A stretch of 64,000 bases of DNA from an uncultured delta proteobacterium (lineage in GTDB: Bacteria; Desulfobacterota; Binatia; UBA9968): NCBI GenBank assembly GCA_963755715.1, contig CAVWLW010000073.1, positions 1-64,000 of the forward strand, read 5' to 3'. Each line of letters starts with the position of its first letter. Positions within the stretch are counted from its first letter, which is position 1. The notes under the pieces were generated by a model. That model was not told where the DNA came from, made no database searches, and worked only from the letters and a program-made list of their open reading frames with translations. Made by a program: the position numbers and the translations under genes. This document shows positions 3,501 through 62,502 of the stretch, one piece after another.

Positions 3501-5580
3501 TTAAGCCGACAAGAGAATGGTTGGTCCGTCAGACGACGAAGCAACGACTTGGTAAAGCCGCTCCTGGGAGCGCAGCGGAGTGCCGTCAGTTGTTCGCGCG
3601 CGCAGGTAATTTCCATCGGATTGCATCCACCAACCCTTCACGTTGTCGGCCAGCTGAGTTTCGAGAATCTCTTTTAGTCGGTTTTGCAGCGCCGGCTCGA
3701 TAATCGGAAACGCAATCTCCACGCGCCGGTCGAAATTACGCTGCATCCAGTCAGCGGAGGCGAGCAAATAAACTGGCTCGCCGCCATTTTGAAAGTAGAA
3801 AACGCGCGCGTGCTCGAGATATCGATCGACAATGGAAAGCACGCGGATGCGCTCCGAGATGCCGGCGACGCCCGGCCGCAGGCTGCACATGCCGCGCACC
3901 AACAGATCGATTTGCACGCCGGCTTGGCTCGCCCGATAAAGCTCCTCGATCACTTCGGGATCGATCAGACTGTTCACCTTAACGATCACGCGCGCCGGGC
4001 GCCCGGCGCGGGCATGGTCCGCTTCTTTGCGGATTTGCGCAAGAAAATAATCTCTCAAGCCAACCGGCGCGAGCAGCAAATGATTGAATTTCTGCGGCCG
4101 CGTGTAACCGGTGAGTAAATTGAAAAGTTCGGTCAGATCTTCGCCAAAAGTTTTCCGGCACGTAAACAGGCCGAGGTCGCTATAGACACCGGCCGTGCGC
4201 GCGTTATAGTTGCCGGTAGCGAGGTGACAATAGCGGCGAATGCCGTCGACTTCCTGACGCACGATCAAACACACTTTGCAGTGAGTCTTATAACCGACTA
4301 ATCCGTACACCACGTGGGCCCCGACTTTTTCCAAGGCGCGCGCCCAGGTGATGTTGGCTTCCTCGTCGAAACGCGCCTGTAGCTCGACCAAAACTGAAAC
4401 TTCTTTGCCTGCTTCGGCCGCACGCGCCAACGCTTGCACGATGGGCGAAGCCGGACTGACGCGATAGAGCGTCATCTTGATCGCCAAGACCTTCGGATCC
4501 TTCGCTGCTTCTTCGACAAAGCGGGTCACCGCATCGAAGGTCTGGTAGGGATGAAATACCATGACGTCGCCGCTGCGTATGGCGCTCCAGATGTCCGGCG
4601 CGCGCTCGAGCGCGGAGATAGCGAGCGGGCTTTGCGGCCGGTCTTTCAAGCGCGGCGCGTTGATCGCGGCGTAGAGCTGAAACAGATCGGTAAACGCGGT
4701 AAATCCCGTGCCGGGGTAGAGATCTTCGACGCCGAGCTCGAGCTCTTCGACCAATTGCCCGACAATTTCTTTGGGCAACTCGGGATCGTATTGAAGCCGG
4801 ACCGCGTCGCCCATGCGCCGCTCGCGGATTCCTTGCTCGATCGTCGCCAGTAGATCCTCGTCGCGCCGCAGTATGCCGAAATCGGCGTCGCGCGTCACCC
4901 GAATCGCGTGACAAGAGATAATCTCAAAGCCGTGATAGAGCCGCGACAAATAATGGTGCAAGACGTCCTCCAACAGCATGAAGGCGTACTGGCCGTCGCG
5001 GCTTGGCAGCGGAATAAATCGCGGCGCCACTTGCGTCGGGATATGGACAATCGACAGATCCGTGTGCGGCAGGCGCGAGGCGATCCGTGTGCCGAGAGAA
5101 ACGACCAGGCAAAGTGAGCGATTCGCCAGATAGGGAAACGGATGTCCCGGATCGATGGCCAGCGGCGTGACGATCGGATACAAAGTGCGATGAAAATATT
5201 CTTCGAGAAATCGTTCCTGCTCACCGCTCATCTCTTCCGGCCGAACCAGATGAATCTCTTCGGCCGACAATTGCGACATAATGGTGTTGAGAAAACAGAG
5301 ATGTTGCTCTTCGGCAAGTTCATGAACCCGCTTCGAGATCGCGCTGAGCGTCTCTGCGTGAGTCCAGCCGTCCGGGCCGACGCTCAGGTCGCCGGCAAGG
5401 ATCAAGCGCTTGAGCCGCGCTACCCGCACCATAAAAAATTCATCTAAATTGGAACTAAAAATTGCCAGGAACTTGACCCGTTCCAGCACCGGCACGCTCT
5501 CTTGCTTCGCTTCTTCGAGCACGCGGCGATTGAATTCTAACCAGGATAACTCGCGGTTGATATAAGTAGTGGCGTCCATG
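3501..5580 (-). CDS. ppk1: Polyphosphate kinase 1
   Basis: YINRELSWLEFNRRVL, SNLDEFFMVRVA, ARFDEEANI, THCK phospho-His, RYLEHARV; start reassigned to MDATTY at 5580. Confidence 0.97.
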
Positions 5581-5681
5581 GGTTTGTGCTTTCTATGCGA
5601 AACTTTGAGGAGTATCGCGGAACTCTGCAGACGCATCCGTGCCATAAAGCCAAGCGTTTTAGGTGCGCCTGGAAGCCTAGT

Positions 5682-5708
5682 GTTACAAAAATGTGAACTT
5701 CTCGTTAA
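5682..5708 (-). promoter_or_regulatory. Pho-box-like array upstream of ppk1
   Basis: TTAAC-gagaag-TTCAC-attttt-GTAAC. Confidence 0.7.
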
Positions 5709-5880
5709 ATCGCTCACGTGAATGGAATTGTCGTAGCCCCTAAGGAAGGAAAAAAATTGCTCACTCTTTTTGGTTTCCGCAGCCCGCCGTGGTCGCGAAC
5801 GGCGCGCATCAGAGCGTCGCGCAGTGTGTCTGAGGCGCCAACAGCCGCTGTCCGATCAAGTGTGCGCTATCGAGAATTGA

Positions 5881-7062
5881 TCATACGCCAGTGCGCCAAT
5901 TCAACTCCGTTTCTTCGCTCGCCGGATGCGTCGGTTTGGCGATTGGCCTTCCCGTCGCGTCACCGTTAACTCCGTTCAAGCCAACGGTGCGGCCGGGAAA
6001 TCCAGCGGCATCGAAATACAGGTGATCGCCCACGACCTGCAATCGGAGCAGAGTCTGAAGTCCGTTGCCTGCTGGTGGCGAGAGCCGCGTCAAGTGTTTC
6101 ACCTGGGGCAAATCGTTCGCGCCGGTCTTGATTGTTTCGGACAGAACGCGGCCCACGAGATCGCCCTTTTTGGCCAGTTTTAAACCGAGAATATGCGCTG
6201 CGGTCATGCCGATATCGGCGTTGCTCGCCGGGGCCGGATCGACGAATCTGGAGCGAAAGCTCGGGCCAATGGCGGCCATAAAATTGCTCGTGTCGGCGCG
6301 GCTAAAACTACCGTGCATGCCTTGCCCCTGTTGCAGCGTGTGATCGGCCACGGTGACGCCGCACATCAAAGGCTCGCCGCAACCCGCCACAAAGGAACGA
6401 AAATTGATCACAATGGCGGGCAGTGGTGTGACTGCCGATCCTTTGAAATTGATCGCGCTCAGGGGCAAAGTTCCGGCGATGCTGCCAAGCGCATCATCGA
6501 CAAACAAGCCGCTGACGTAATCTTGACCGAGCAACATGTCGACAATTTTTACGACCAATTCTTTGGCATTCGCCTTGGGTAGATAAACCAGATCCGCTCC
6601 ACCATTGGCGGTGACCACGACGTCGGGTGAAATTGGATCAGGACCGATGAGACCGTTCGCTTTGCTCGAATGCTGGCCGGCGGTGAACTCGACCGGCGCA
6701 GACTTCGCGTCAGGATCGAAGAGGCGCATATCGAGCGCTTTCGCGATGTCGATGGCGACAAACCCCGGTGGCAACTGGCCGGGCGGAACATCTTTGTAAT
6801 TGATTTTCGATGCCGCGCTAGTTTGGCTGTCTTTGGAAATCGTGGAAAAGCCATGATCGGCGCTGACGATCACATCAGTCGTCGCGTCGAGCCCGAGTGC
6901 TTTTAATGTATCTAGAATTGCGGCCAAGTTATCATCGGCATTTTTGACGGCGGCTTGAGACGTCGGACCGTTGATACCCGGCACAAGCTGATTCAAGCTA
7001 TCGCCCTGGTTAGGTTGCGTGCCGTCCGGATCGCGCGACCAGAATACCAGCACGAACGGCTT
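5881..7062 (-). pseudogene. 5'-truncated alkaline phosphatase/nucleotide pyrophosphatase (NPP) family gene
   Basis: KPFVLVFWSRDPDGTQPNQGD, SADHGFST, GQGMHGSFSRAD motifs; signal peptide and N-terminal catalytic part absent, and the divergent gene starts at 7209. Confidence 0.75.
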
Positions 7063-39485: not shown

Positions 39486-39539
39486 GTAACCGCAGCTTAA
39501 CCTGTGCTTAACCAATCCGTAATCAAATTTTAGTATTAT
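39486..39539 (+). promoter_or_regulatory. Pho-box-like array (4 repeats) plus -10
   Basis: GTAAC-N6-TTAAC-N6-TTAAC-N6-GTAAT, then 10 nt and TATTAT; core CTTAACCTgtgCTTAACC. Confidence 0.8.
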
Positions 39540-39582
39540 GAGCGGAATTAGTTCACGTCAAAGCTGCTTGAGGAGTGAAACG

Positions 39583-40941
39583 ATGGCGCAGGTTAAATTG
39601 GACATGCCGTACTTGAAAATTATCCCGCCTGGGTTTTGGTTCGTACTGTTCATTGCCTTCGCCGCCCACCCGGCGCTGGCGCAAAATAAGGTGATCGCAA
39701 CCTACACATTCCCCGAAATACCGATCAAGGAGTTTCAAAATAAGAAATTCCCCGGTTCCGTCGCCAACGACCATAAAGTTCTCTTGGGCTCGGTCGGCAG
39801 CGACCTGTGGCACGACCCGAAAGGTCCGCGTGACGAATTTTGGATGTTGACCGATCGGGGGCCCAATGGACAAATCGCCGTTGACGGAAAGAACCGGCGC
39901 ACTTTTTGGGTACCGGAGTTCGATCCGACGATCGTCAAAGTCAAACCCGAAGGTAAAGCGATCCGAATCCTAGAGGCGATTCCAATTGTCGGCCAATCGG
40001 GCAAGCCCATAACCGGAATGCCTAATCTCAAAGATGTCGACGAGACACCGTACAATTATTCGGCGCAGGAAGTGCTGCCTTTCAATCCCAACGGCCTCGA
40101 TACCGAAGGTCTGGTCCGCACCGCCGCCGGTGATTTCTGGATCGCCGATGAGTATAGCCCATCACTCGTGCACGTCGACCGAACGGGTAAGGTCATTAAA
40201 CGCTACGTGCCCGAGGGACTGAAACTCGAGGGCACAGACTATCCGGTTGCGAAAGTTTTGCCGTCGATCTACGGCAAAAGGAAGATCAATCGCGGCTTCG
40301 AAGGACTGGCGCTGAGCGCCGACGAAAAGACACTCTATACCGTGCTGCAAAGCCCGCTTTTGAATCCCGACCGTAAAATCGGCGATACCTCGCGCAACAC
40401 CCGAGTGCTGGTATTCGACATCGCCAGCGAGAAAGTTACCGCCGAGTACGCCTACCGCTTCGACGTGTCGACGCAGTTCGATCCCAATCCCAAAAATACC
40501 CCCGACGAAATGAAGCTCTCGGGCGTGATCGCGATCAATCCGACGACGTTGCTCGTGCTCGAGCGCACCGATCTGGTCGCCAAGCTTTATAGTGTCGATT
40601 TCAGTGAGGCAACGAATATTCTGAATAGCAAATGGAATGACGCCCAAACGGCTCCCTCCCTCGAAGCGCTGAGCGATCCGTCGGCCGCGGCGGTGCGGAC
40701 GTTGCCCAAAACACTGGTCGTCGACCTAAGCTCTCTCGACGGTGTGCCCGAAAAGATCGAAGGCATCGCTTTGCTCGACGCGCAGACTCTTGCGATCTCG
40801 AACGACAATGATTTCGATAGCGAAGAAAGCAAATACGACAGCGAGGGCAATAATCTTGGCAAAGGCAAGAAAAGCCAGATCCTCTTGATCTCTCTCGACA
40901 AACCGCTGCCTTTACCGAAAGCCACCGTGTCCGCCCGCTAA
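39583..40941 (+). CDS. Esterase-like activity of phytase family protein (PF13449-type)
   Basis: TDRGPN, LDTEGL, DEYSP, NRGFEGLA, EKIEGI, NDNDF. Confidence 0.9.
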   Translation: MAQVKLDMPYLKIIPPGFWFVLFIAFAAHPALAQNKVIATYTFPEIPIKEFQNKKFPGSVANDHKVLLGSVGSDLWHDPKGPRDEFWMLTDRGPNGQIAVDGKNRRTFWVPEFDPTIVKVKPEGKAIRILEAIPIVGQSGKPITGMPNLKDVDETPYNYSAQEVLPFNPNGLDTEGLVRTAAGDFWIADEYSPSLVHVDRTGKVIKRYVPEGLKLEGTDYPVAKVLPSIYGKRKINRGFEGLALSADEKTLYTVLQSPLLNPDRKIGDTSRNTRVLVFDIASEKVTAEYAYRFDVSTQFDPNPKNTPDEMKLSGVIAINPTTLLVLERTDLVAKLYSVDFSEATNILNSKWNDAQTAPSLEALSDPSAAAVRTLPKTLVVDLSSLDGVPEKIEGIALLDAQTLAISNDNDFDSEESKYDSEGNNLGKGKKSQILLISLDKPLPLPKATVSAR

Positions 40942-41041: not shown

Positions 41042-41093
41042 GCGGATGGGCGAATAGGAACCAGCAAATTTGACAGCGAAAGGATTGGTTCCT

Positions 41094-42407
41094 ATGCACA
41101 AACATCAACGACAATTCAAACAGCCACGCGGCGCATCGAGATATGACGACCCGCTCGATTTCGTCGCGCGATTTACCCCGCCGAGCGAAGCTTGGTTACG
41201 CAGCGTTTGCTGCTTGCTCTTTCTGCTTCTGGGCGCAACGCCCGCCGTGGCCGCCCCGCACGACGAATTTCCCCATCCGTTGGTCATCGGGCATCGCGGC
41301 ACGCACGGCTATCTGCCGGCTCACACCTTGGCGGGCTACGCCTTGGCGATCGAGCTGGGCGCGGACTTTATCGAGCCAGACTTAGTCGCGACTAAAGATG
41401 GCCAGTTGATCGCGCGCCACGAGCCGAATCTGATTGCCACCACCGATGTCAGCCGACGGCCGGAATTCGCCAATCGCAAACGCAAAGCGATTATTGATGG
41501 TGCCGAAGAAGAAGGATGGTTCGCATCCGATTTCACTCTCAAAGAGATTAAAACGCTGAGGGTGGTTCAAGACTTCGCCGACCGGCCGCAAGAGTTCAAC
41601 GACTTGTTTGAAATCCCCACATTCGAAGAGGTGATCGCGCTCGCCAAGCGAAAATCAAAAGAAAAGGGCCGGACTATCGGCATTTATCCTGAGACCAAGC
41701 ATCCGACTTATCATAAGAGCCTGGGCCTGCCGCTGGAAGCGCGTCTGGTCAAGATCCTCAAAGCCGAAGGATGGGATCATCCCGATGCGCCGGTATTCAT
41801 CCAGTCGTTCGAACAAACCAACTTAAAAGAATTGCGCAAGATAACGCGCAACAGGCTCATTCAACTCGTTGACGCTAACGACGTGAACCCGGATGGCACG
41901 TTGGATTACACCGCGCCGTTTGACCGGCCCTACGACTGGACCGTTTCGAAGGACCCAAAGCTATTGAGCCGCACTTTTGGCTTTTTCGCCACTGACGAAG
42001 GGTTGAAGGAGATCAAGAGTTATGCCGACGGCATCGGTCCGTGGAAACGCTACATCGTAAGCACCGTGGCGGCAAACCTACCTGGGCCCGGCGAAGCGAG
42101 TCTCAAGCTCCTACCGCCGAACGATCTGATCGAGCGAGCGCACAAGGCCGGTCTGCTCGTTCACAGCTGGACTTTTCGCAACGAGCAGCGCCGTCTGGTG
42201 AGCGACTACGCGGGAAATCCGATAAACGAATACTTACAATTTTACGACCTCGGTATCGACGGCGTATTCTCGGATTTCGCCGACACCGCGGTCGCCGCGC
42301 GGGTTTTATTTAAGCTCGTGGACACTCCCGGCTTCGCGCGCTGTTTTACCGAGGGACCCGATAAGTTTCAACGCGCGGAGAGCTCCGACTGTTTGAATTT
42401 GGAATAG
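41094..42407 (+). CDS. glpQ: Glycerophosphodiester phosphodiesterase
   Basis: [46 protein letters not shown]; true start may be downstream. Confidence 0.92.
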
Positions 42408-42434
42408 CGGATCCTTTCTTCTTGGGGGCGAATC

Positions 42435-42472
42435 GAGGGAGGGCTGGACAATCCAGCCCCTCCCTCTTTTTA
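42435..42472 (+). terminator. Rho-independent terminator after glpQ
   Basis: GAGGGAGGGCTGGA-caa-TCCAGCCCCTCCCTC followed by TTTTT. Confidence 0.8.
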
Positions 42473-42521
42473 TTTCTTTCGATTTCTAGTCCTCGGACAC
42501 GCACCACGCTCGTGATGGGCT

Positions 42522-42575
42522 GTTACGCAGACTTCGTTCATTTGTAACCCACGCGACATATGCGTGGATTATTTT
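42522..42575 (+). promoter_or_regulatory. Pho-box-like array plus -10 upstream of the GT4 operon
   Basis: GTTAC-N6-TTCGT-N6-GTAAC-N6-GACAT, then 10 nt and TATTTT. Confidence 0.6.
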
Positions 42576-42616
42576 ACCGCAAGATCGAGGGCGCTCTTTC
42601 GGGTATTTAGCGCCTC

Positions 42617-43923
42617 ATGCGCGGCGTACCTGCGGTCGCGCACATGGCCATGACGATGATGATGCAGCCGAAAAATTTATCCGGGTCCCGATCCGAAGCG
42701 ACAAATCAGCGACACCTTTGTCTCGTCACGGAGACTTATCCGCCTGAAGTCAACGGCGTCGCTCAGACGATGGCGCACCTGATGGACGGTTTGCGCTTGC
42801 AGGGCTACTCGGTATCGCTGGTTCGGCCGCGCCAGCACAGCTTCGACGGCTCCGATTATCGTTATCAGCCCGGCGCCACATTGGTTCGGAGTCTACCGTT
42901 GCCCGGCTATCGCGGATTGCACATCGGCGTGCCCGCCAGCGCCGCGCTGCGGCGTTGTTGGACCGAGCGCCGCCCGGATATCATCTATGTCGCGACCCAA
43001 GGTCCGCTGGGCTGGTCGGCGGTTAGCACTGCGCGTCAGCTCGGACATACCCGTGTTCAGCGGCTTTCCACACCAACTTCGACGCCTATTCGAAGCACTA
43101 TCATGCCGGCTGGCTGCGCTTTTTGATCTGGCGCTATTTGTCCGCTTTTCATAACCGTACGGCCGGCACCTTGGTGCCCTGCGCCGAGCTGCGCGGTCGA
43201 TTGCAGGCGATGGGATTGCGCAACATCGGCGTGCTCGGCCGCGGCGTCGACGCTGAGCTATTCACGCCGCGCCGGCGCAATTTGGCCCTGCGGCGCGCCT
43301 GGCGCGCCGCGCCGGATGATTTGGTGGCCTTGTACGTCGGGCGGCTCGCGCCGGAAAAGAACCTGAACCTTGCCATAGAATCCTATCGAGCGATGCAGCG
43401 CGTCAACGCCGCCGTGAAATTCGTCCTCGTCGGCGACGGCCCGCTGCGCGCCGCGCTGCAAAAAAAACATCCCGATCTTATTTTCTGCGGCATGCGCACG
43501 GGCGAGCGATTGGCCGAGCATTATGCTTCCGCGGATGTCTTTCTTTTTCCGAGCGAGACCGAAACCTTCGGCAACGTAACGTTGGAAGCGCTGGCAAGCG
43601 GACTGGCCGTCGTCGCCTATGATTACGCCGCCGCGCGGCTGCACATCAAAAACGGCACGAACGGCATCCTCGTGCCTTATGGAGAGGCGCTCGCCTTCGT
43701 CGATGCCGCGGCGAAACTGGCGCGCGCACCTCAAGCGCTCGCTGACATGCGCCAACAAGCCCGCCAGCATGCCGCGTCTCTCGACTGGCAGCTAGTGGTT
43801 AAAAGATTCGCCGCGTTCCTGCTGGGCGATCCGGCGCGGCTTCCTAGTGCGAGCAGCGACAGGAAGGCTGAATCTATCGAGACCATACCGGCCTATTACC
43901 GGCGCGGCCTAACCTTGCCATGA
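42617..43923 (+). CDS. GT4 glycosyltransferase (Agt/MgtA-like glycolipid synthase), frameshift ~43050
   Basis: VTETYPPEVNGVA, FHTNF, RGVD, YVGRLAPEKN, SETETFGNVTLEALASG. Confidence 0.88.
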
Positions 43924-43942
43924 AAAACGGGAGGGCACAGAG

Positions 43943-46210
43943 ATGCTAATGGAAGACACAATCCAGCGGTGGACGGCCTGCGTCGATGCGCGCACGATCG
44001 AGACCTGTCGACTTGATTCGATGGACGGCTGGTTTCTGTTGGGCCTTTTTCTCCTTGTCTTGCTCGCGATCTACGCGTGCCGAAAGGTTTTGACCCTTAT
44101 CCTGACCTGGCGCGCGCTGGCTTGGCTGCCAAGCTTGTCGCGGCGCTTGTCGAATTGGGTGAAAGCGCGCGACTACACGGAAGAGGAATTTTTTCGCGCT
44201 GACGGCGCGGCAGGTCCGTGGGTTGAGCGACGCAAACAGGCTCTCGACCAGCTCGCCGCCCTTCTCCAGACGCAGCATCAACAGTCGATTGCTTGGGCCA
44301 AGGCGCTCTGCGACAGCTTTTCGGATCTCCGTTTCACCGACGCCAATCGAGTGCCGTTTCCCTTCGCGCGCGTGATGCGCGAAAAATTTAACCTTTGCTC
44401 CGTGGTCACGGCGTCGCAAGGTCCGCGACTAAAAAACCTCGACGGTCATTGGACGATCGACGTGAGCGGTTCCTATGGCGTCAACGTCGCGGGCTTCGAC
44501 CGTTACAAAGAGTGGATCGAAAAAGGTTGGGAGCGGGTCAAAGATCTCGGCGCGGTGTTGGGGCCGGTGCACCCGATCGTGGCCGACAATATTGCTAGGC
44601 TCAAGACCCTTTCGCACATGGACGAAGTGTCGTTTCACATGAGCGGCACCGAGGCGGTCATGGCCGCCGTGCGCCTGGCCCGTTTCAATACGCGGAGAAA
44701 ACTGATCGTCTGTTTTTCCGGTGCCTATCACGGCTGGTGGGACGGCGTGCAACCGGGGCTGGGCAGCGAGCGCCCCCTGGACGATTGTCTCACCCTCAAG
44801 GACCTCGATCCGAAATCGCTGGACGTGATCCGCCGCCGCGCGCGAGAAATCGCCGGCGTGCTGGTCAATCCGGTGCAATCGTTTCATCCCAACTCGCCGC
44901 CGCCCAACGATGCGATCCTGCTCACCAGCGATGTCCGGAAAACCGAGGACTCCACCGCGCGCTATGCCGAGTGGCTGCGCCAGTTGCGCGAACTGTGCAG
45001 CGCCTATGAGATTCCGCTGATTTTCGACGAAGTCTACTCCGGCTTTCGCCTCGCCCCTGGGGGCGCGCAGGAATACTTCGCCGTGCGCGCCGATATGGTC
45101 GTGTACGGGAAAACCGTGGCGGGCGGCCTGCCGATCGGCGTCGTGTGCGGCAAGAAAACACTGATGCGGCGCTTCGATCCGAAGTTGCCCATGCGCATCG
45201 CCTACGTTGTCGGCACGTTTTCCGGCCATCCGGGCGTGATGGGCGCGATGAACGAATTTTTGCGCTGGGTGAGCGCGACGGATACGGCAAAACTGTATGA
45301 GGAATCGAATCGGCGTTGCACCGAATGGGTGCGCGCGACCAATCAAAAATTGGTCGCTGCCACGCTGCCCCTGCGCCTGGTGAACCTGGCGACGATATGG
45401 ACGGTGCTCTTCAAAGAACCCAGCCGCTACAATTGGCTGCTGCAGTACTATCTGCGCGCCGAAGGGGTCACGCTCAGTTGGGTCGGCACCGGGCGCTGCT
45501 TAAGCAGCATGGACTTTACGAATGATGACTATCTTGCCTTGCAGGAAAAACTACTCAACGCCGCGCGCCAGATGAAAAGTGACGCCTGGTGGTTGACCGC
45601 AAAAGAATATCCGGGAAGGGAGAAAAATATGCGCACGCGTCTCATACGGGAAATGTTGGGGAGTCTGGTTCAAGTGCCCAAGCCTTTGACGACCTTTTAT
45701 GCGGAAGTGATGCGGCGAAAAGCAGACGATCATCACGCTTCGCACAGCAATGGAATCAACCAATTTTTTCATCTGTTGAGCTCCAGCGTCTTTATTTATT
45801 GCTACATTTTGGCGTTTGCCGATCTCACCACGGCGATGTGTTTAGGATTGGCTTCCCTGTTTGTGCGCCAATTCGGCCACGCGATCTTGGAGCCCCCTTG
45901 CCACGACAAGGAAGCTTTGCTGTTGGGTTACAACACGCGCAATAAGACGCTGATCGTGCTCGGCTATGTAGCGATTCCGATCGTTCAGATGATGCAGGCC
46001 GGCGCGTGGTCGCTGACGGTCTTTAGAGCGCTCATTGCTCCCATCGCGCTCAATTGGTTTCTTTGGACGCTGCTCGTAGTGCTCGGACGGGTAACTTATC
46101 TCGTGTGGAAACACGACTTTCGCATCTCGATGATTTGGTTTATCAAACTGATTACCGATCCTTTGACCGATATCTTTGCCTATTTTCCGCGCTGGCCGCA
46201 GCGCGCCTGA
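43943..46210 (+). CDS. Class-III PLP aminotransferase/aminomutase (HemL-like) with N-terminal TM and C-terminal Mpo1-like membrane domain
   Basis: SGTEAVMAAVRLAR, GAYHG, LIFDEVYSGFR, YGKTVAGGLPIG (PLP Lys); C-terminal HHASHSNGINQFFH and QFGHAILEPP. Confidence 0.85.
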   Translation: MLMEDTIQRWTACVDARTIETCRLDSMDGWFLLGLFLLVLLAIYACRKVLTLILTWRALAWLPSLSRRLSNWVKARDYTEEEFFRADGAAGPWVERRKQALDQLAALLQTQHQQSIAWAKALCDSFSDLRFTDANRVPFPFARVMREKFNLCSVVTASQGPRLKNLDGHWTIDVSGSYGVNVAGFDRYKEWIEKGWERVKDLGAVLGPVHPIVADNIARLKTLSHMDEVSFHMSGTEAVMAAVRLARFNTRRKLIVCFSGAYHGWWDGVQPGLGSERPLDDCLTLKDLDPKSLDVIRRRAREIAGVLVNPVQSFHPNSPPPNDAILLTSDVRKTEDSTARYAEWLRQLRELCSAYEIPLIFDEVYSGFRLAPGGAQEYFAVRADMVVYGKTVAGGLPIGVVCGKKTLMRRFDPKLPMRIAYVVGTFSGHPGVMGAMNEFLRWVSATDTAKLYEESNRRCTEWVRATNQKLVAATLPLRLVNLATIWTVLFKEPSRYNWLLQYYLRAEGVTLSWVGTGRCLSSMDFTNDDYLALQEKLLNAARQMKSDAWWLTAKEYPGREKNMRTRLIREMLGSLVQVPKPLTTFYAEVMRRKADDHHASHSNGINQFFHLLSSSVFIYCYILAFADLTTAMCLGLASLFVRQFGHAILEPPCHDKEALLLGYNTRNKTLIVLGYVAIPIVQMMQAGAWSLTVFRALIAPIALNWFLWTLLVVLGRVTYLVWKHDFRISMIWFIKLITDPLTDIFAYFPRWPQRA

Positions 46211-46249
46211 TCCAGCTTCGCCATATCTCAGGACGAAACACCTTGTCAC

Positions 46250-46786
46250 GTGAGTCTATGGATCTTTCTTTGTGCCGCGGCATTGCTGAGCCTGGAGCGG
46301 ATTTGCTACCTGTGGATTTGGCGCGCACCCGGAGCTTTCTGTGCCCTGTGCGCCCGTCCCGCAATCACGCGGATCGGCACGCCGGTCGATGTCTTACAGT
46401 TCCTTTTTTGTGGCTTCAAGATACTGCAATGCGCCGTGTTTCTCGCTTGGTGTTTTGCCTATGGAAACGGATCGCTGTGGCCGCCCAGCAGCGATCCGCT
46501 GTCCTTGACGCTTGGAGCGGCGCTCTTGATCGGCGGTCAAATCCTCAATATCAGCGTGTTCTATCGCCTGGGCAAGGTCGGGGTATTTTATGGCAATAAG
46601 TTCGGCTACCCAACGTCTTGGGTGCGCAAGTTTCCGTTTTCGTGTTTAAGACATCCCCAGTATATCGGCGCTTTGCTGTCCATCTGGGGGTTTTTCTTGG
46701 TGATGCGTTTTCCCCAGGACGATTGGTATATCCTGCCCGCACTCGAAACGCTGTATTACGTTCTCGGCGCGTATTGGGAGCAATAA
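46250..46786 (+). CDS. PEMT-family phospholipid N-methyltransferase (plant PLMT/Opi3-like)
   Basis: LN..VFYRLGKVGVFYGNKFG...WVRKFPFSCLRHPQYIG; ~4 TM. Confidence 0.8.
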   Translation: MSLWIFLCAAALLSLERICYLWIWRAPGAFCALCARPAITRIGTPVDVLQFLFCGFKILQCAVFLAWCFAYGNGSLWPPSSDPLSLTLGAALLIGGQILNISVFYRLGKVGVFYGNKFGYPTSWVRKFPFSCLRHPQYIGALLSIWGFFLVMRFPQDDWYILPALETLYYVLGAYWEQ

Positions 46787-46808
46787 TTGGAAACCTGCGC
46801 GACCCTGT

Positions 46809-47144
46809 TCAATGGGCACCGATGCAGCGCTTGCTTTCGGCTTCGATCTCCCAGGCCTGCAAGCATCTACGAATCCCATGCGCGCTCAAGCCGAGCACGG
46901 CGCATATGGACTCGAAGGAATACAGATCCTCGCGATCGTTTTGAAAAAACCACGCACGATCGGCTTTGAACAATTTATTCGGGTTATGCAAATTTTTGCG
47001 AAAGTTCAGCAAGGCATCCTTCAATACGGCCAGCATGAGATCGCACTCCGGAAGCGCATGTTCGTTGCTTCTAACTGTACGCCAAAAAATAGCGCTCTCC
47101 ACGTCGTCGCTTTCTGGGTATTGAATCGTTGAGATCAAATCCAT
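46809..47144 (-). CDS. Conserved hypothetical protein
   Basis: AAAGGAG SD; PExxLMLAVLxDA...W...FSFESICxVLGL pattern. Confidence 0.7.
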   Translation of the reverse strand: MDLISTIQYPESDDVESAIFWRTVRSNEHALPECDLMLAVLKDALLNFRKNLHNPNKLFKADRAWFFQNDREDLYSFESICAVLGLSAHGIRRCLQAWEIEAESKRCIGAH

Positions 47145-47255
47145 GGCGCTGCTCCTTTCCGATCGAATCTAGGCTCGCGCATTTCCGGCTACCGATCCCA
47201 ATGGCCGTCAAGATCGCGACACCGCCGTCAAAGGTCAGTATTGTGGATACCAACG

Positions 47256-47282
47256 GTTACGGTGAGATTAACACGCCGCTAA
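47256..47282 (-). promoter_or_regulatory. Pho-box-like array upstream of the 111-aa hypothetical gene
   Basis: TTAGC-N6-TTAAT-N6-GTAAC, then 10 nt and CACAAT. Confidence 0.55.
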
Positions 47283-47428
47283 ATTTGCCGACGTTTGCTC
47301 CGCCGCTTGAGCCGCCGAGCCACATCGGTAGCTTTATCTCGGTTCGGTTACAACGTTCCTGACAGCTACGATTTGAAGCTCAAACGGGCGCCACAGACAC
47401 TCCGCTGTCGCGTTCATTCGATTCCAAG

Positions 47429-47962
47429 TCAAAAACTCTCGGCGATCTCTCCAAGCACAGGCACTCGCCACACGGGTGTGGAACGCGTGGACTGATGAGG
47501 TTCGATCGAAAGAACCGGACAAGGCGCGTTCCTGCTGACAGTTTCAGCGATGCGGCGCGTGAAAAACCGAGTGAGCGCGCTTTTTTTGCGCCGGGACAAA
47601 ACGATCAGATCGACATCCTCCTGGATTGCTGCGACAACAATTTCCTCCGCCGCTCTACCCTGCCCTGCCCTGGGTTTCCACGCGACGCCGCTACTTTCAG
47701 CGCCGAACGTGGCACAGACAAACTGCCTCACGCGGTATTCGGCTTCCGTGAGAAGCTGATCCGTTTTGAACTTGGACAGCAGTTGCGACCATTGATAGTA
47801 AGGCTCCACTTCACAGCAAGCGTATTGGCTCAGACGGGGAAACAACGTCGCATGGAAAATAATCAGTTGAGCACGATTTTTTTTAGCCAGCGAGAGCCCG
47901 TAAGCAATCCCGTCTTTGGAATTGACCGTGAGATCCGTCGGGCAGAGAATTCTTTGACTCAT
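47429..47962 (-). CDS. Universal stress protein
   Basis: AGGAGG SD; RILCPTD, DVDLIVL, AETVSRNAPCPVL. Confidence 0.88.
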   Translation of the reverse strand: MSQRILCPTDLTVNSKDGIAYGLSLAKKNRAQLIIFHATLFPRLSQYACCEVEPYYQWSQLLSKFKTDQLLTEAEYRVRQFVCATFGAESSGVAWKPRAGQGRAAEEIVVAAIQEDVDLIVLSRRKKSALTRFFTRRIAETVSRNAPCPVLSIEPHQSTRSTPVWRVPVLGEIAESF

Positions 47963-48259: not shown

Positions 48260-48796
48260 CTATGACGCCAGCAACCAAGACGCGACGTATCCGCCGATCA
48301 GGCCGCCGGCAATCACATCGGTAGGATAATGTAGACCGAGGACAACACGAGACAGCGCGATCAAACTGCTGGCGGGAATGAGCACAAGAGACAACTCTGC
48401 GTGGTGCGCGCCAGCGATCATAGAGAAAGCAACCGCGTGCATCGTATGTCCCGAAGGAAAACTGTATTGGTCGAGCGGTGCGGTGCCGAGACAGATCTCT
48501 TTGCTGACGACATCGGGTCGAGGTCGGCCGGTGAGATTTTTGACAGCCTTGTAGAGCGCCAAGTTGACGATGCCGACAATCACCATATTCCAGGAAGTCG
48601 CCAGCCCCTTCTCGCCGTAGATCAAGGGCAGTGCGACCATGAGCAAGTACCAAGCTTTGCCATCGCCGATCCAACTGACCAGGACAAAGAACTTTTTGAT
48701 TTTTGGCGCGCGGGACATACGGTTCAGCAGCCCGCAAACAACGATCTCACGGTCCGCGACCCATCTGACCAGCACAATCGATTGAACCTTACCCAT
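48260..48796 (-). CDS. PAP2 family lipid phosphatase
   Basis: KxxxxRPRP, SFPSGH, SRVVLGLHYPTDV. Confidence 0.92.
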   Translation of the reverse strand: MGKVQSIVLVRWVADREIVVCGLLNRMSRAPKIKKFFVLVSWIGDGKAWYLLMVALPLIYGEKGLATSWNMVIVGIVNLALYKAVKNLTGRPRPDVVSKEICLGTAPLDQYSFPSGHTMHAVAFSMIAGAHHAELSLVLIPASSLIALSRVVLGLHYPTDVIAGGLIGGYVASWLLAS

Positions 48797-49674: not shown

Positions 49675-50656
49675 ATGCGGATCGCTTGGCTTGCCGCCTT
49701 CTCCATTGGCTTGTTTTCGTCACTTGTTCGCGCCGCCGATGAAAGGACCATCGAAGCCGCGCGCAAAGAAGGCGCGGTGAGTTTCTACACCACCATGGCG
49801 GCCACGGAGAGCAAGCTTTTCGCCGACGCCTTTCAAAGTAAATATCCATCTCTCAAAGTCGAGATCACCCGCCTCGGCAGCGACAAATTACTGCAACGGA
49901 TACTCACCGAAAACCGCGCCGGCCGCGGACTGTTTGACGCAACCAGCAACAGCGGCTTCGAAATGCACTTGTTGAACAAGGCACGCTTACTCGCCCGTTA
50001 TCAGTCGCCGGAATTCAACGCCTTCGTTGCCGACTCCAAGGACCGCGCAGGATATTGGGTCGATATGTATTCCAACGTCCGAGTTCTCACTTACAACAGT
50101 CGGTCTGGTGCCCAAGGAAAAGGTGCCGCGCAATTATGAGGACCTCCTCGATCCGGGATGGAAGGGCGCCATCGGTTTTCCCGAAGCGCAGTACGCCTGG
50201 TACGGCACAATGCTGCGTGTGATGGGCGAAGAGAAAGGCAAAAAATTTATGCAGGCGCTCGGACGCCAGGAGCTTCAGTACCGCGCCTCGCAGGTTTTGA
50301 TCACCCAATTCGTCGCCGCCGGAGAATTCAATTTGGGCTTTGTCTATGACAACCAGGTACTCCGATTCAAGAAAGAAGGGGCACCGCTCGGCGTGGCGCC
50401 GCTGCCGTTCGTGACCAAGAATATGCACCCGCTGGGCCTCGCCGCCGCCGCGCCGCATCCGAACGCCGGCAAACTGTTCATCGACTACATGCTATCGCGG
50501 GAGGCGCAGACACTGATGAAAGCTCTTGGCCGCGTCGTCTCTCGATCGGATATTTCTCAGGACGAGCTCGGCCGCTTCAAGCTGATCGCCGACGATGTCA
50601 CCCTGGCCGACCGCATCAATCCACTGATGGAAGAATATAAAAAATATTTCCAATGA
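49675..50656 (+). CDS. ABC extracellular solute-binding protein (AfuA-like), frameshift ~50100
   Basis: ARKEGAVSFYT, DLLDPGWKG, APHPNAGKLFIDY. Confidence 0.82.
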
Positions 50657-58015: not shown

Positions 58016-60706
58016 GTGGAAGGGAGCCTATTCATTGTGAATTTGCCTACGCCGTCATACATCGAGCTATATCGTGCGCGGTTTGGTGAGTTGGATCTGG
58101 ATGAGTCGGATAAGGTTCCTAAACAGAAGCGCGTTATAAACGACGGCGAAATATTTTTAAGAAGCAATGGAACTTCACCTTTAGCTAAGAAAATTCCGAC
58201 GCATCTCAACTCATCCCCCGGTAAAATTCAACGGCCGCATGTCGGCGGTAAATTCTTATTCGTCGGCAACGAAAAATTTTGGGTGCGAGGAGTCACCTAC
58301 GGAGCATTCAGACCGGGTCCAAACGGTCAGGAGTATCATGACCCAACGGTTCTGGAGAGAGACTTTTCTCTGATGGCCGCGAACGGACTCAATGCAGTCC
58401 GTATTCCACATACGATGCCGCCGCGGGAGCTTCTCGACATCGCTCAAAAACATGGCCTTCGTGTCATGGTCGGGTTATCTGCAGAACAGTATGCGGGCTT
58501 TTTGATTGACCGAAAAGGTGCTCCTGACGTTGAAGAATTGGTGCGCGCAAAAGTGCGTTCCTGTGCAGGACATCCTGCGCTTCTTTGTTATGCGCTTGGG
58601 AATGAGATCGCCGCACCTGTCGTTCGGTGGCTGGGCCGCGGACGAGTAGAGAGTTATCTCGAGAGCCTGTACTGGGCGGTGAAAGCAGAAGACCCGAACG
58701 CCCTCGTCACTTACGTAAATTATCCTACAACCGAATACCTTCATCTTCCTTTCTTAGATCTCGTGACTTTCAACGTTTACCTTGAATCGGAGAACCAGCT
58801 TGACGGCTACTTGGCCCGACTCCATAATATTGCCGGAGATCGACCCCTGCTGATGAGCGAGATCGGTCTCGACAGTCTTAGAAATGGCGAGACAACGCAG
58901 GCGCAGGCACTCGAGTGGCAACTCCGCAGTACCTTCGCGCCGGGCTGTGCAGGGGCCTTCATATTTTCGTGGACTGATGAGTGGCACAGGGCGGGTGCCG
59001 AAGTCGAAGACTGGGCATTTGGCATCACCGCTCGTGATCGTCGTCCCAAACCCGCTCTCAAAGCGGTCCGGGAGGCATTCACCAAGGTCCCCTTCGCAAA
59101 GGAACTCCACTGGCCGAAGGTTTCTGTCATCGTATGTACCTTTAACGGCAGCCGCACTCTCTCTGAATGTTTGGAAAGTTTGCTAAGGCTTGAGTATCCT
59201 AACTACGAAGTAATCGTGGTGAACGATGGTTCGACGGATGCTACTGCAAAGATTGCCCATAGCTATGGCTTTCGAGTGATAACAACCGAAAATCGCGGAC
59301 TCTCTTCCGCGCGCAATACGGGACTCAATGCAGCTACGGGAGAAATCGTCGCGTATATTGACGATGATGCCTACCCCGACCCGCACTGGTTAAAATATAT
59401 TGCCAGTGCGTTCATGAATTCGAAACATGTTGGAGTCGGCGGTCCGAACATCGCACCGCCCAATGATGGACCTATTGCCGAGTGCGTCGCCCATTCCCCG
59501 GGAAACCCGGTGCACATTCTGCTGTCCGACACTGAGGCCGAACATATTCCCGGATGCAATATGGCCTTTCGCAAAACCGCTCTGGAAGCCATTGGCGGAT
59601 TCGATCCGCAATTTCGCATTGCCGGAGACGATGTGGACGTTTGCTGGCGCCTGCAGCAAAAAGGGTGGACTCTAGGATACAGCCCAGGAGCAATGGTTTG
59701 GCACCACCGGCGTAATTCGATTCGAGCCTATTGGAAGCAGCAGCGCAATTACGGCAAAGCGGAATCGTTTTTGGAGAAAAAATGGCCGGAGAAGTACAAT
59801 CTCGCGGGCCATGTCACGTGGGCGGGCCGAGTCTACGGGAATGGCCACCAATATAAGGCATGGAGCCAAGGACGGATTTATCATGGCGTGTGGGGCAGCG
59901 CGCCCTTCCAGTCTATTTACCAATCACCGGCCGGGGCCTTAGAATCTTGGTTGTCCATGCCCGAATGGTACTTGGCCGTCGCCGCGCTTCTTCCGATTGT
60001 TGCGCTCGGCTTCCTCTGGTTTCCCTTATTCTATGCTCTGCCGTTCCTGGCGTTAGTGCTTTACGCACCGATTTTCCAAGCCGTGATTAGTTCGTCACGA
60101 GTCGGCTTTTCAGCCGCGCGAAGATCTCCCTTTGACTGGGTTAAACTGCGCAGCGTCACGGCACTGCTGCATTTACTCCAACCTCTGGCGCGCCTAAGCG
60201 GACGCCTGCGTTCCGGACTCACTTTCTGGAGATACAAGGCATCCGGCTTTGTGATGCCCTGGCCGCGGAAATTTGCCGTTTGGACCGAGCATTGGCGCGA
60301 TCCCAATGAAAGATTGAAATCTTTCGAAGCGGATTTGCGCAAGGCGGGGGTTTACGTTCGGCGAGGCGGAGATTACGATCGATGGGACTTGGAAGTGCGT
60401 GCCGGGTTGCTTGGCTTTGCGCGCTTGCTCATGGCGGTGGAGGATCACGGTGCCGGTAACCAATTTGTCCGAGTTCGGCTCTGGCCTAAGTGTTCACTGC
60501 TGGAGCTTCTTCTTCCCTTTTTATCCATTTCCCTTTCCGCTGCGGCAGCGCTTGATAACGCATGGGTGGCTTCCGCTATCCTAGGTCTGTTGAGCGTTTT
60601 TCTAACGATATACAGTCTGCGTGGTTGCGGGAGCGCCATTGCCGCAATCCTTCGCACCTTCCAGCATTCGGATGCCATTCATGACAGACAAAAAGAAATA
60701 CAATAG
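58016..60706 (+). CDS. Fusion of clan GH-A (GH2-like) TIM-barrel, GT2 glycosyltransferase and TM domain; start uncertain
   Basis: RGVTYG, LGNEI, LMSEIG, WTDEW; VSVIVCTFN, VNDGS, YIDDDA, PGCNMAFR, GDDVD. Confidence 0.85.
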   Translation: MEGSLFIVNLPTPSYIELYRARFGELDLDESDKVPKQKRVINDGEIFLRSNGTSPLAKKIPTHLNSSPGKIQRPHVGGKFLFVGNEKFWVRGVTYGAFRPGPNGQEYHDPTVLERDFSLMAANGLNAVRIPHTMPPRELLDIAQKHGLRVMVGLSAEQYAGFLIDRKGAPDVEELVRAKVRSCAGHPALLCYALGNEIAAPVVRWLGRGRVESYLESLYWAVKAEDPNALVTYVNYPTTEYLHLPFLDLVTFNVYLESENQLDGYLARLHNIAGDRPLLMSEIGLDSLRNGETTQAQALEWQLRSTFAPGCAGAFIFSWTDEWHRAGAEVEDWAFGITARDRRPKPALKAVREAFTKVPFAKELHWPKVSVIVCTFNGSRTLSECLESLLRLEYPNYEVIVVNDGSTDATAKIAHSYGFRVITTENRGLSSARNTGLNAATGEIVAYIDDDAYPDPHWLKYIASAFMNSKHVGVGGPNIAPPNDGPIAECVAHSPGNPVHILLSDTEAEHIPGCNMAFRKTALEAIGGFDPQFRIAGDDVDVCWRLQQKGWTLGYSPGAMVWHHRRNSIRAYWKQQRNYGKAESFLEKKWPEKYNLAGHVTWAGRVYGNGHQYKAWSQGRIYHGVWGSAPFQSIYQSPAGALESWLSMPEWYLAVAALLPIVALGFLWFPLFYALPFLALVLYAPIFQAVISSSRVGFSAARRSPFDWVKLRSVTALLHLLQPLARLSGRLRSGLTFWRYKASGFVMPWPRKFAVWTEHWRDPNERLKSFEADLRKAGVYVRRGGDYDRWDLEVRAGLLGFARLLMAVEDHGAGNQFVRVRLWPKCSLLELLLPFLSISLSAAAALDNAWVASAILGLLSVFLTIYSLRGCGSAIAAILRTFQHSDAIHDRQKEIQ

Positions 60707-62502
60707 TTTTGAGCTTTACCGGCGGCTATTACTTGAAGTAAGGCCTTATTACACGCACATAGGGGCGATTCTATTGATCACCTTGTTATCGCCCCCCCTC
60801 GCTCTGCTGATCCCATTGCCTTTGAAAATTGCGGTCGATAGCGTCATTGGCTCCCGTCCAATACCAGCGTTTCTACAGCAAGTAATACCTGAGGCTGTCA
60901 CCGGGTCTCCTAATGGCATGGTGACGTTCGTCGTGGCTCTAATGATGCTCGTTGCCCTTCTCGGCGGACTCCAACGGGTCGCTAGTACGTTGTTGCGCAC
61001 CTATACTGGCGAAAAGTTAACATTAGCATTCCGAAACAAACTGTTTCGCCACGTCCAGCGGCTTTCGGTCTCATATCACGATACGAGAGGAACAACTGAT
61101 TCCACCTATCGCATCCAGTATGATGCTCCTGCGATTCAATGGATAGCCGTCGATGGTTTGATACCTTTTGTCGCTTCAGCATTGACTGTCGCCGGGATGA
61201 TTTACATTATCGCCCTGCTCGACTCGCAGTTAGCGCTGGTTGCGATCGCAGTTACACCAGTTTTATACCTTGGCGCGCGAACGTTTAATTCGCGGCTTCG
61301 CAACCAGTGGGGCGATATTATGCACTTGGAAAGTTCCGCTTTTTCCGTAGTGCAAGAAGCCCTAAGTGCCTTGCGCGTGGTTAAAGCCTTCGGTCAAGAA
61401 GAGCGAGAACAAGAGCGTTTTGTTCGTCACTCTAGCGAGAGCTTTTCTAGCACGAGTTCGGGCTGCATGGTCAGAAGGGGCTTTCGATCTTCTGATTGGA
61501 ACTACTACGGCAGCCGGAACAGCTGCAGTCTTATTTTTGGGTCTGCGACATGTCCAGTCAGGGAGCTTAACACTCGGCGAGTTGATGATGGTCATGTCCT
61601 ACCTGGCACAGCTATTCGGACCCTTGGCGTCACTTAGCGAGATGACGGCACGTGCGCAACGCTCACTTGCCAGTGCGGAGCGCGCATTCGCGCTTTTGGA
61701 TGAAGCCCCTGACGTCGTTGAAAATAAAAATGGAGTGCCGATATCTCATGCGAGCGGAGCGATAACCTTCCAGGACGTTTGCTTTGCCTATAACGGCGAG
61801 AGTCCGGTGTTGAGTGACATCTCGTTCGCAATCAAGCCTGGCACTCGAGTCGGTATCATGGGTATGACCGGCGGAGGAAAGTCAACGCTGGTTAGTTTGT
61901 TGACCCGATTCCACGACCCGACTCAAGGCCAAATCCTGCTCGATGGTGTTAATCTTCGGGATTACAAGCTAGGGGAGCTTCGCAATCAGTTCGGCATCGT
62001 CCTTCAAGAATCCATACTTTTTTCGACCAGCATCGGCGAGAACATTGCCTATGCACGTCCCGGTGCCTCGCAAGATGAAATCGTTGAGGCTGCAAAAGCC
62101 GCTAAAGCGCATGAGTTTATAGCTCGGCTTCCGCACGGCTATGGTACGATGGTGGGTGAGCGTGGAATGCAATTATCCGGCGGACAGCGCCAGCGGATTG
62201 CGCTCGCACGGGCTTTTCTGAAGAATGCTCCCATTCTCATCCTCGATGAGCCGACAAGCTCCATCGATATAAAAACAGAAAGAGAAATTATCGAGGTGAT
62301 GGAGCGTCTTAGCATTGGGCGCACCGTCTTTATCATCGCCCATCGCTTGTCTACCTTGAAACACTGCGATCTACTCCTTGGCATTGAACATGGCCAAGTC
62401 GCCTTTATCCGGTCCGACGTTTCAAAGGCCATAGGAGATCCCTCCGTTTTCGTGGCACCTCACACGTACCCTTTATCTCGAGAAGAGAAATTTGGAGGGT
62501 AA
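60681..62502 (+). CDS. ABC exporter, fused permease and ATPase, frameshift ~61445
   Basis: TM domain, GMTGGGKST, LSGGQRQR, ILILDEPTS. Confidence 0.9.

Follow-up and report, generated by a model that had tools for sequence, protein, structure and literature searches.

The window analysed here, a stretch of 64,000 nt from an uncultured delta proteobacterium of the Binatia (positions 1 to 64,000 of contig CAVWLW010000073.1, assembly GCA_963755715.1), encodes a membrane protein, P0001, in which an N-terminal transmembrane (TM) helix, a class-III aminotransferase core dependent on pyridoxal phosphate (PLP) and a Mpo1-like membrane tail are joined in one reading frame. We propose that this protein could act as an oxidase-transaminase module that aminates a lipid head group as part of membrane remodelling under phosphate starvation, and we put the probability of this scheme as a whole at about 0.45. 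The identities of the domains and the coupling of core and tail are much more secure than the scheme, the phosphate-starvation lipid context of the genes is probable, and any one particular substrate named below is unlikely to be the right one.

Residue numbers refer to P0001 and nucleotide coordinates to the window. Relatives were collected by a word-indexed search of 5.8 billion proteins, which gave at least 120 clusters with 69-86% identity to P0001 over 93-100% of its length, and divergent relatives by an exhaustive search of 50%-identity representatives. Genome loci come from a scan of one genome per species with at least 592 confirmed stretches; the locus counts given below are for the best 80 of these at least 592, comprising 40 loci of a clade with the fused form and 40 of a clade with a split form (L040-L080), and neighbours were counted within about 6 kb of each locus. 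Conservation was read from 40 aligned members of the fused family. Cut-offs are the Pfam gathering and NCBIfam equivalog thresholds (24 bits for PF06127), and alignment-wide scans of members were taken to E up to 1.

A preliminary description of this DNA, made from its letters alone, had read a three-part protein in one intact open reading frame (ORF) of 755 residues beginning with a hydrophobic helix, and this architecture is confirmed, the frame being open from end to end (Table 1). Residues 29-56 are hydrophobic (Kyte-Doolittle maximum 2.24), and residues 26-56 form a helix in the AlphaFold2 model of P0001 (mean pLDDT 80.9, pTM 0.67). The flank before this helix carries 3 Lys/Arg and 6 Asp/Glu and the flank after it 7 Lys/Arg and 2 Asp/Glu, so that by the positive-inside rule the PLP domain would be cytoplasmic; the same topology argument would leave residues 1-28 facing the periplasm. 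This leading segment (43943-44026) is conserved in close relatives, with the consensus …RW.AC…C.L…DGW and two conserved cysteines. Some relatives have long N-terminal extensions (P0243, P0245, P0246 and long ORFs in loci L012 and L059). The long ORF in L059 was rejected as a true extension, being an over-extended call with the upstream glycosyltransferase of family GT4 sitting in another frame.

By profile, motif and fold, the core is a class-III aminotransferase and not HemL. The match of P0001 to PF00202, anticipated in the preliminary description, reaches 94.5 bits against a cut-off of 30.5 and is the only Pfam family above threshold; all 40 family members match it as well. The PLP lysine that had been noted as retained is K390 in VVYGKTVAGG (codon 45110-45112), which aligns with YGK of the AMT domain of mycosubtilin synthase MycA; K390, D362 and the S234-G235-T-E237 motif all align with MycA AMT and are invariant in 40 of 40 aligned members. 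In this fold the lysine forms the Schiff base, the aspartate pairs with the pyridine nitrogen and SGTE binds the phosphate, and given the invariance of all three the core should be catalytically competent.

Among solved structures the best sequence match of the core is the mycosubtilin synthase AMT domain, with 163.8 bits (E 4.4e-47), whereas the best glutamate-1-semialdehyde (GSA) aminomutase reaches 106 bits. Foldseek with the core finds the MycA structure 6KFM (E 1.7e-26, TM-score 0.82, 27% identity), and the next relatives are beta-transaminases, the 3-aminobenzoate synthase PctV and the aminoglycoside C-6' aminotransferases GenB3 and GenB4 (7lld, 7lm0). Within a plasmid and chromid collection the nearest sequences, after a family member from Sphingomonas, are AMT domains of Ralstonia hybrid nonribosomal peptide synthetases/polyketide synthases (NRPS/PKS), 32.6% identical to residues 135-576. 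In this branch of class-III enzymes the ketone or aldehyde that receives the amine is not positioned alpha to a carboxylate. The core and MycA AMT (6KFM/6KFU) have in common the class-III fold as well as the lysine of YGK and the aspartate of DE(V/I), and the substrate of MycA is a lipid-like carbonyl compound; MycA, however, is embedded in a PKS/NRPS and acts on a carrier-bound beta-ketoacyl chain, while P0001 is predicted to be anchored in the membrane at both ends and is encoded in a head-group cluster. A Pfam scan of P0001 found no PP-binding, ketosynthase or condensation domain; P0326, by comparison, has them.

Against the HemL equivalog TIGR00713 P0001 scores 164.4 bits, far from the cut-off of 527.3, and against NF000818 161.2 bits (cut-off 398). 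Solved GSA aminomutases are 22-26% identical to the core, with TM-scores of about 0.75, and the HemL profile has 423 positions, compared with 755 residues and five TM helices in P0001. The earlier wording of a HemL-like core is thus right as to the class-III subfamily but misses the closer relationship to MycA AMT, while its two further points, that this is no true HemL and that automatic pipelines would call it hemL, are borne out: among the matches listed, 50 of 120 relatives bear the JGI name 'glutamate-1-semialdehyde 2,1-aminomutase'. The five relatives named by NCBI among the matches listed are all 'aminotransferase class III-fold' enzymes.

The tail contains the motifs H601-S-N-G-I-N606-Q-F-F-H610 and Q643-F-G-H646-A-I-L-E650, already spotted as HxNxxNxxxH and QFGHxxxE, which are typical of Mpo1. 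Even at 25% identity there is no change at H601, N606, H610, Q643, G645, H646 or E650 (N603 varies); they belong to 17 tail residues conserved to that depth, together with D596, S613, S614, R642, G662, K668, W732, K735, D739 and T742. The seven motif residues fall on the first two TM helices of the tail, inside the stretch that aligns with PF06127 (formerly DUF962), the family of yeast Mpo1. In P0001 itself this match runs from residue 598 to residue 650, against positions 12-66 of the 95-position profile, and scores 12.5 bits (E 0.17), which is below the cut-off. The divergent homologue P0260 exceeds the cut-off, with 38.6 bits (E 1.2e-9), and five other homologues score 14-22 bits at the equivalent place (P0244, 22.2 bits); in one homologue scan the cut-off was exceeded by 1 of 22 proteins. 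In the alignment-wide scans PF06127 is the sole recurring tail family, matched by 32 of 40 fused members and by all 35 stand-alone tails (best E 3.3e-5), each of the latter below the cut-off (the first at 21.2 bits vs 24). In a protein-language-model atlas the neighbours of the tail are bacterial membrane proteins of about 200 residues, with one cluster partly assigned to PF06127 and one automatically named 'Mpo1-like'. Judged by these profile scores, the tail probably forms an outlying branch of the Mpo1-like superfamily, so that the original assignment to Mpo1/DUF962 survives as remote, transitive homology, with P0001 itself short of Pfam's own criterion.

Yeast Mpo1, a lipid-oxidising membrane enzyme, is described as the single-step 2-hydroxy fatty acid dioxygenase of alpha-oxidation, with a fatty acid one carbon shorter as its product (PMC10398889). 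The resemblance of the tail lies in the partial profile alignment and the histidine motifs on its first two TM helices; the difference is that the tail is remote in sequence and fused or adjacent to an aminotransferase. In the predicted structure the invariant polar residues of the tail would all lie at the cytoplasmic membrane face. The model of a stand-alone tail is of good quality (pLDDT 89, pTM 0.83). The KDEL receptor, its best Foldseek hit (E 0.43, TM-score 0.19), was rejected as meaningless. Short relatives of the P0001 tail are mostly truncated copies of the fusion on short contigs, and of 393 candidate short relatives of the P0260 tail 0 reached E up to 0.001.

The fused architecture is widespread. 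It persists at 25-45% identity (P0244, P0260, P0263, P0352, P0362 and P0373, from the exhaustive search of representatives), and the fused clade includes Binatia, Rokubacteria/Methylomirabilota, Vicinamibacterales and other Acidobacteriota, Nitrospira, Myxococcota, Thermodesulfobacteriota, one metagenome-assembled genome (MAG) of the Actinomycetota and several MAGs of the Pseudomonadota. Among the Nitrospira loci is L069, from the complete genome of Nitrospira moscoviensis NSP M-1, where the GT4-fusion-PEMT operon lies at about 4,470,400-4,477,200 of NZ_CP011801.1. The tail is in the same gene in 38 of the 40 fused-clade loci, the other two (L025, L034) stopping at a contig edge. An assembly artefact, considered at the outset as an explanation of the fusion, is ruled out by this recurrence in at least 120 clusters, in 38/40 loci and in several phyla.

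In the split clade the core-only proteins have about 540-600 residues, are 43-50% identical to residues ~30-580 of P0001 and keep the N-terminal TM helix. A separate tail gene of 200-240 codons is found in 36 of the 40 split loci; in 31 it directly follows the core on the opposite strand (convergent), and in 4 others it is no more than about 5 kb away. A split set is also present in Sphingomonas parapaucimobilis YK209 (L082; NZ_CP155753.1, 69,535-73,627). Among the tail-less loci the sequence of L043 and L068 stops near the core, and L041 and L047 have no tail gene in the available flank. These last two, from Mariprofundus/Zetaproteobacteria, are the sole tail-less cases without a contig edge as explanation, with downstream flanks of 1.4 kb (L041) and about 5 kb (L047). 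The stand-alone tails, which have 58 invariant positions, align to fused residues 582-751 (hhalign probability 99.8%, E 1e-29). The suspicion that the two domains are normally separate in homologues is therefore half right: they are fused in one clade and encoded by adjacent genes in its sister. Fusion in one lineage and adjacency in another, a Rosetta-stone pair, are classic evidence that core and tail would work together.

A quick FastTree phylogeny of the core groups 38 split sequences together with support 100; the fused forms are the sister of this clade, and the two further 'split' sequences inside the fused clade are the contig-truncated loci L025 and L034. Below both clades, on long branches, come five fused forms of very divergent sequence. 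The topology suggests an ancestral fusion followed by one fission. Copies from Nitrospira nest within those of Binatia (L018, L021, L026, L038, L069 against L007, L009), and the window protein groups with a Vicinamibacterales copy and Rokubacteria copies. As the gene tree departs from the phyla, it also suggests gene transfer among soil lineages.

A solitary stand-alone tail gene, annotated 'Blr4581 protein', is present amid transposases on the symbiosis-type plasmid pNK6a of Bradyrhizobium diazoefficiens (L081, 8145-8639), with no aminotransferase annotation in the 16.5 kb shown. Similar solitary tail genes occur on 7 other Bradyrhizobium plasmids.

The neighbours of the module are mostly genes of lipid head-group metabolism. 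In the window the fusion gene lies 20 nt after the end of a GT4 gene and 40 nt before the start of a PEMT-like methyltransferase gene. A GT4 45-66% identical to that of the window is directly upstream in 18 of the 40 fused loci, and any GT4 is found within about 6 kb in 61 of all 80; the best NCBIfam matches of intact GT4 orthologues are GlcNAc-phosphatidylglycerol synthase (137-150 bits) and monoglucosyl-diacylglycerol synthase (80-99 bits), all below cut-off. A PEMT-like homologue directly follows the fusion in 21 of the 40 fused loci, and a PmtA-like class I methyltransferase is present in 12 of the 40 split loci (best match 'phospholipid N-methyltransferase PmtA', 156 bits, below cut-off). 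Metallophosphoesterases (Metallophos) resembling LpxH or PlcP accompany 26 of the 80 loci (17 fused, 9 split), PlcP being a member of the LpxH-like family, and a BtaA-like DUF3419 protein with a class I methyltransferase accompanies 6 of the 40 fused loci. A bona fide phosphatidylserine decarboxylase (PSD; TIGR00163, 160.8 bits vs 111.75; for example L063:4992-5906 on the minus strand) is encoded in 32 of the 40 split loci and in 0 of the 40 fused loci. The lipid substrate supposed in the preliminary description fits this conserved company of GT4, methyltransferases, PlcP-like and BtaA-like proteins; that description had overlooked both the methyltransferase partner and the setting of lipid remodelling under phosphate starvation. 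Tetrapyrrole genes are absent from the scanned neighbours of the window and the loci.

Several genes for phosphorus scavenging or storage occur in the window: ppk1 and a type I phosphodiesterase/nucleotide pyrophosphatase (together 3501-7053), the phytase-like esterase and the GlpQ-type phosphodiesterase just upstream of the operon, and a PAP2 phosphatase downstream. Elsewhere, PhoD is encoded directly upstream in L030, alkaline phosphatase and 5'-nucleotidase in L019, and PPK2, UDP-glucose dehydrogenase, PhoR and PhoB in L051. Upstream of the GT4 gene there are phased hexamers resembling a Pho box. The pattern TGTWAC-N16-TGTWAC with at most one mismatch recurs a single time in the 64 kb, on the minus strand at 5682-5709 (0.21 expected per window; two or more matches in 3 of 100 shuffles); since it was the first site that supplied the pattern, the second alone is independent. 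This second site reads TTTAAC / GTTCAC / TGTAAC, spaced by exactly 11 bp, and precedes the conserved ppk1 start by about 100 nt, and Binatia loci have phased GTTCAC / GTTCAA / TGTCAA repeats upstream of their GT4. These sites are suggestive of putative Pho boxes at the operon.

The closest parallel is with the plcP-agt clusters, which carry Pho boxes and make monoglucosyldiacylglycerol (MGDG) and glucuronic acid diacylglycerol (GADG) under phosphorus stress (PMC4796936; PMC9239053). Shared elements are GT4 and metallophosphoesterase, as candidate counterparts of Agt and PlcP, BtaA/BtaB-like proteins, Pho genes and, putatively, Pho boxes; an aminotransferase or Mpo1-like protein is not described for those clusters in either source. 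A second parallel may be drawn with the GenB-type pairs that make 6'-amino sugars (7LLD/7LM0), in which a hydroxyl is converted to an aldehyde and then to an amine with a GSA-aminomutase-like aminotransferase; the GenB enzymes differ in being soluble and in acting on soluble pseudo-oligosaccharides. Their partner oxidases are not known to be related to Mpo1. The methyltransferase partners of the module recall PmtA, PEMT and OlsG, in that they are PEMT-family or PmtA-like, but all fall below the NCBIfam equivalog cut-offs. OlsG, a relative of the phospholipid N-methyltransferases, is a precedent for such enzymes, as its methylation substrate is an aminolipid free of phosphorus (PMC12971839).

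Taken together, we suggest the following scheme. The N-terminal TM helix and the four-helix C-terminal domain would hold a cytoplasmic PLP aminotransferase at the inner membrane, where the Mpo1-like domain, using a metal and O2 as we infer, would generate a carbonyl by oxidising a position of a lipid head group. From this carbonyl the aminotransferase would then form a primary amine, and the PEMT-like enzyme, or the PmtA-like enzyme in the split clade, would N-methylate that amine. Since GT4 is the commonest partner, the glycosyl-lipid made by the upstream enzyme is the first candidate substrate, in analogy to the GenB-type route to 6'-amino sugars, and diacylglycerol, which GT4 would use as well, is the second. 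The product could be a phosphorus-free, nitrogen-bearing lipid, cationic or zwitterionic, in place of phosphatidylethanolamine (PE) or phosphatidylcholine. The strongest hint of a lipid amine as product is that lipid N-methyltransferases of two unrelated types keep appearing next to the module. If the putative Pho boxes are functional, the operon would be expressed when phosphate is scarce.

Going one step further, the fusion with its GT4 and PEMT-like neighbours might represent an undescribed route to a phosphorus-free lipid whose head group bears a primary to quaternary amine, placed on glycosyl-diacylglycerol or on the glycerol of diacylglycerol, an idea that we put forward tentatively. If true, the variant with the amine on the glycerol would be a natural trimethylammonium lipid. 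In either case the producers, when starved of phosphate, would be abundant lineages of soils and nitrifiers (Binatia, Rokubacteria, Acidobacteriota, Nitrospira), and the Mpo1-like family would gain a second chemistry, outside alpha-oxidation, that works with a transaminase.

Several observations weigh against the proposed scheme. The known product of Mpo1 is an acid, not an aldehyde or ketone that a transaminase could use (PMC10398889). The PF06127 scores of P0001 and of all stand-alone tails are below the cut-off, and a Foldseek search with the stand-alone tail model returned 0 matches in the PDB at E up to 0.001 from which a metal site might be recognised. The PSD genes, frequent in the split clade and absent from fused loci, are left unexplained, and no Metallophos or PlcP-like gene lies within 6 kb on either side of the fusion in the window. 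The GT4 and BtaAB neighbours may share a regulon with the fusion and not a pathway, and the GT4 of the window is read in three frames (to about 43045, 43047-43067 and from 43069). No biochemical or expression data for any member were found in the literature searched, which covers only a small part of the subscription journals.

In the main rival the two reactions run the other way round: the aminotransferase would deaminate a head group (that of phosphatidylserine, PE, the diacylglycerylhomoserine made by BtaA, or ornithine lipid) to a 2-oxo acid or aldehyde, which the Mpo1-like domain would then cleave or decarboxylate oxidatively in the manner of alpha-oxidation. Such a sequence does better with Mpo1, whose sole characterised chemistry removes C1 from a 2-hydroxy acid (PMC10398889), and with the neighbours PSD, the commonest in the split clade, and BtaA, which would supply an alpha-amino-acid lipid next to the fused form. 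It does worse with the aminotransferase subfamily, since PKS AMT domains, GSA aminomutase, beta-transaminases and the sugar C-6' enzymes put or shift amines at non-alpha positions, and with the PEMT-like and PmtA-like neighbours, which fit an amine product better than its removal; nor does PSD ever adjoin the fused form. We consider the reversed order unlikely.

Chemistry on a fatty chain in place of the head group is improbable. Here the Mpo1-like domain would oxidise a 2- or 3-hydroxy acyl chain or a sphingoid, and the core would make an amino acyl chain or fatty amine. The nearest solved relative does aminate a beta-keto fatty acyl chain, the AMT domains of the Ralstonia lipopeptide PKS/NRPS come next in the plasmid collection, one split system is on a Sphingomonas replicon, and sphingolipid breakdown is the source of the 2-hydroxy fatty acids used by yeast Mpo1 (PMC10398889). 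P0001, however, has no carrier-protein, ketosynthase or acyl-activating domain, none of these recurs in the scanned neighbours, and the neighbours that do recur are head-group enzymes (GT4, N-methyltransferases, PSD, PlcP-like). The tail might also be a mere anchor, or a sensor of metal or lipid, with the aminotransferase alone doing the chemistry on a lipid or soluble amine; the weak PF06127 match of P0001, the lack of a solved structure for the tail fold and the unverified metal site would allow this. It is made highly improbable by the 17 tail residues invariant to 25% identity, by the retention of the tail as a neighbouring gene with 58 invariant positions in 36 of 40 split loci, and by the N-terminal anchor that is already there, in the core-only proteins as well. 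A membrane-tethered HemL for tetrapyrrole synthesis, in spite of HemL models being the top NCBIfam matches and of the JGI label, can virtually be dismissed in view of the score against the equivalog cut-off, the closer PKS AMT domains, the low identity to solved GSA aminomutases and the scanned neighbours free of tetrapyrrole genes.

Replacement of phospholipids by phosphorus-free lipids is a main microbial response to phosphate scarcity, for which the known routes lead to glycolipids (Agt/Pgt), betaine lipid (BtaAB) and ornithine lipids. The fusion, a function for bacterial DUF962 proteins and an aminotransferase in plcP-type clusters were not found in the literature searched, with the same restriction as to subscription journals; the architecture, its split counterpart and their place in phosphate-starvation lipid clusters appear to be undescribed, the domains themselves being of known kinds. 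With at least 592 genome stretches, at least 120 clusters above 69% identity, several phyla and the cultured Nitrospira moscoviensis, the family is widespread. Should the family prove to make a new aminolipid, the known means of remodelling would be extended by one pathway, the ecology of soils and nitrifiers would have a further biomarker lipid, the poorly understood Mpo1/DUF962 superfamily would have a bacterial function, and a systematic misannotation, by which hemL is overcounted in metagenomes, would be put right.

Table 1. Position of the fusion gene, its parts and neighbouring features in the window
Feature	Position (nt)	Strand	Basis or remark
ppk1 (polyphosphate kinase 1)	3501 to about 5579	-	profile match
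Phytase-like esterase (PF13449), context	39538..40941	+	profile match
GlpQ-like glycerophosphodiester phosphodiesterase, context	41070..42407	+	profile matches
Hairpin followed by T-run, between GlpQ-like gene and operon	about 42425-42472		sequence
Pho-box-like phased hexamers TGTTAC ... GTTCAT. TGTAAC	42521..42548	+	69 nt upstream of GT4 start
GT4 glycosyltransferase, lipid type, first gene of apparent operon	42617..43923	+	ORFs 42617-43126 and 43123-43923
Fusion protein P0001: TM anchor, class-III PLP core, Mpo1-like 4-TM tail	43943..46210	+	single open frame, 755 aa
N-terminal TM helix, residues 29-56	44027..44110	+	hydropathy, AlphaFold2 model
Class-III PLP aminotransferase core, residues about 130-560	44330..45622	+	PF00202, motifs, fold
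Mpo1-like membrane tail, residues 580-755	45680..46207	+	four hydrophobic helices, amphipathic C-terminal helix (model)
Invariant tail residues D596, H601, N606, H610	45728-45772	+	alignment
Invariant tail residues R642, Q643, G645, H646, E650	45866-45892	+	alignment
Invariant tail residues W732, K735, D739, T742	46136-46168	+	alignment
PEMT-family (PF04191) membrane methyltransferase, 178 aa	46250..46786	+	PF04191 57.2 bits
PAP2 lipid phosphatase, context	48260..48796	-	profile match

A sigma-70 promoter scan of 42300-47500 gave 0 sites, with terminator-like sites at chance level, and no Rfam family was found in the whole window. The two frame changes in the GT4 gene, near 43046 and 43068 and so about 25 nt or less apart, could be either an assembly error or a young pseudogene; relatives L001, L002, L008 and L014 read the GT4 peptide …LGIPVFSGFHTNF… in one frame. 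Two further gene pairs of the window look frame-split. One, at 49675-50656, encodes a solute-binding protein, with a 154-aa ORF without Pfam match and a 209-aa ORF whose match is confined to the C-terminal part of the solute-binding-protein profiles; in the other, an ATP-binding cassette exporter at 60621-62502, the membrane-domain and ATPase ORFs overlap in different frames. Other assemblies carry, on long contigs, short called genes that are fragments 100% identical to parts of P0001. Because of these two pairs and the identical fragments, there is a fair suspicion that assembly indel errors may lie behind the frame changes, and we do not call the operon decayed.

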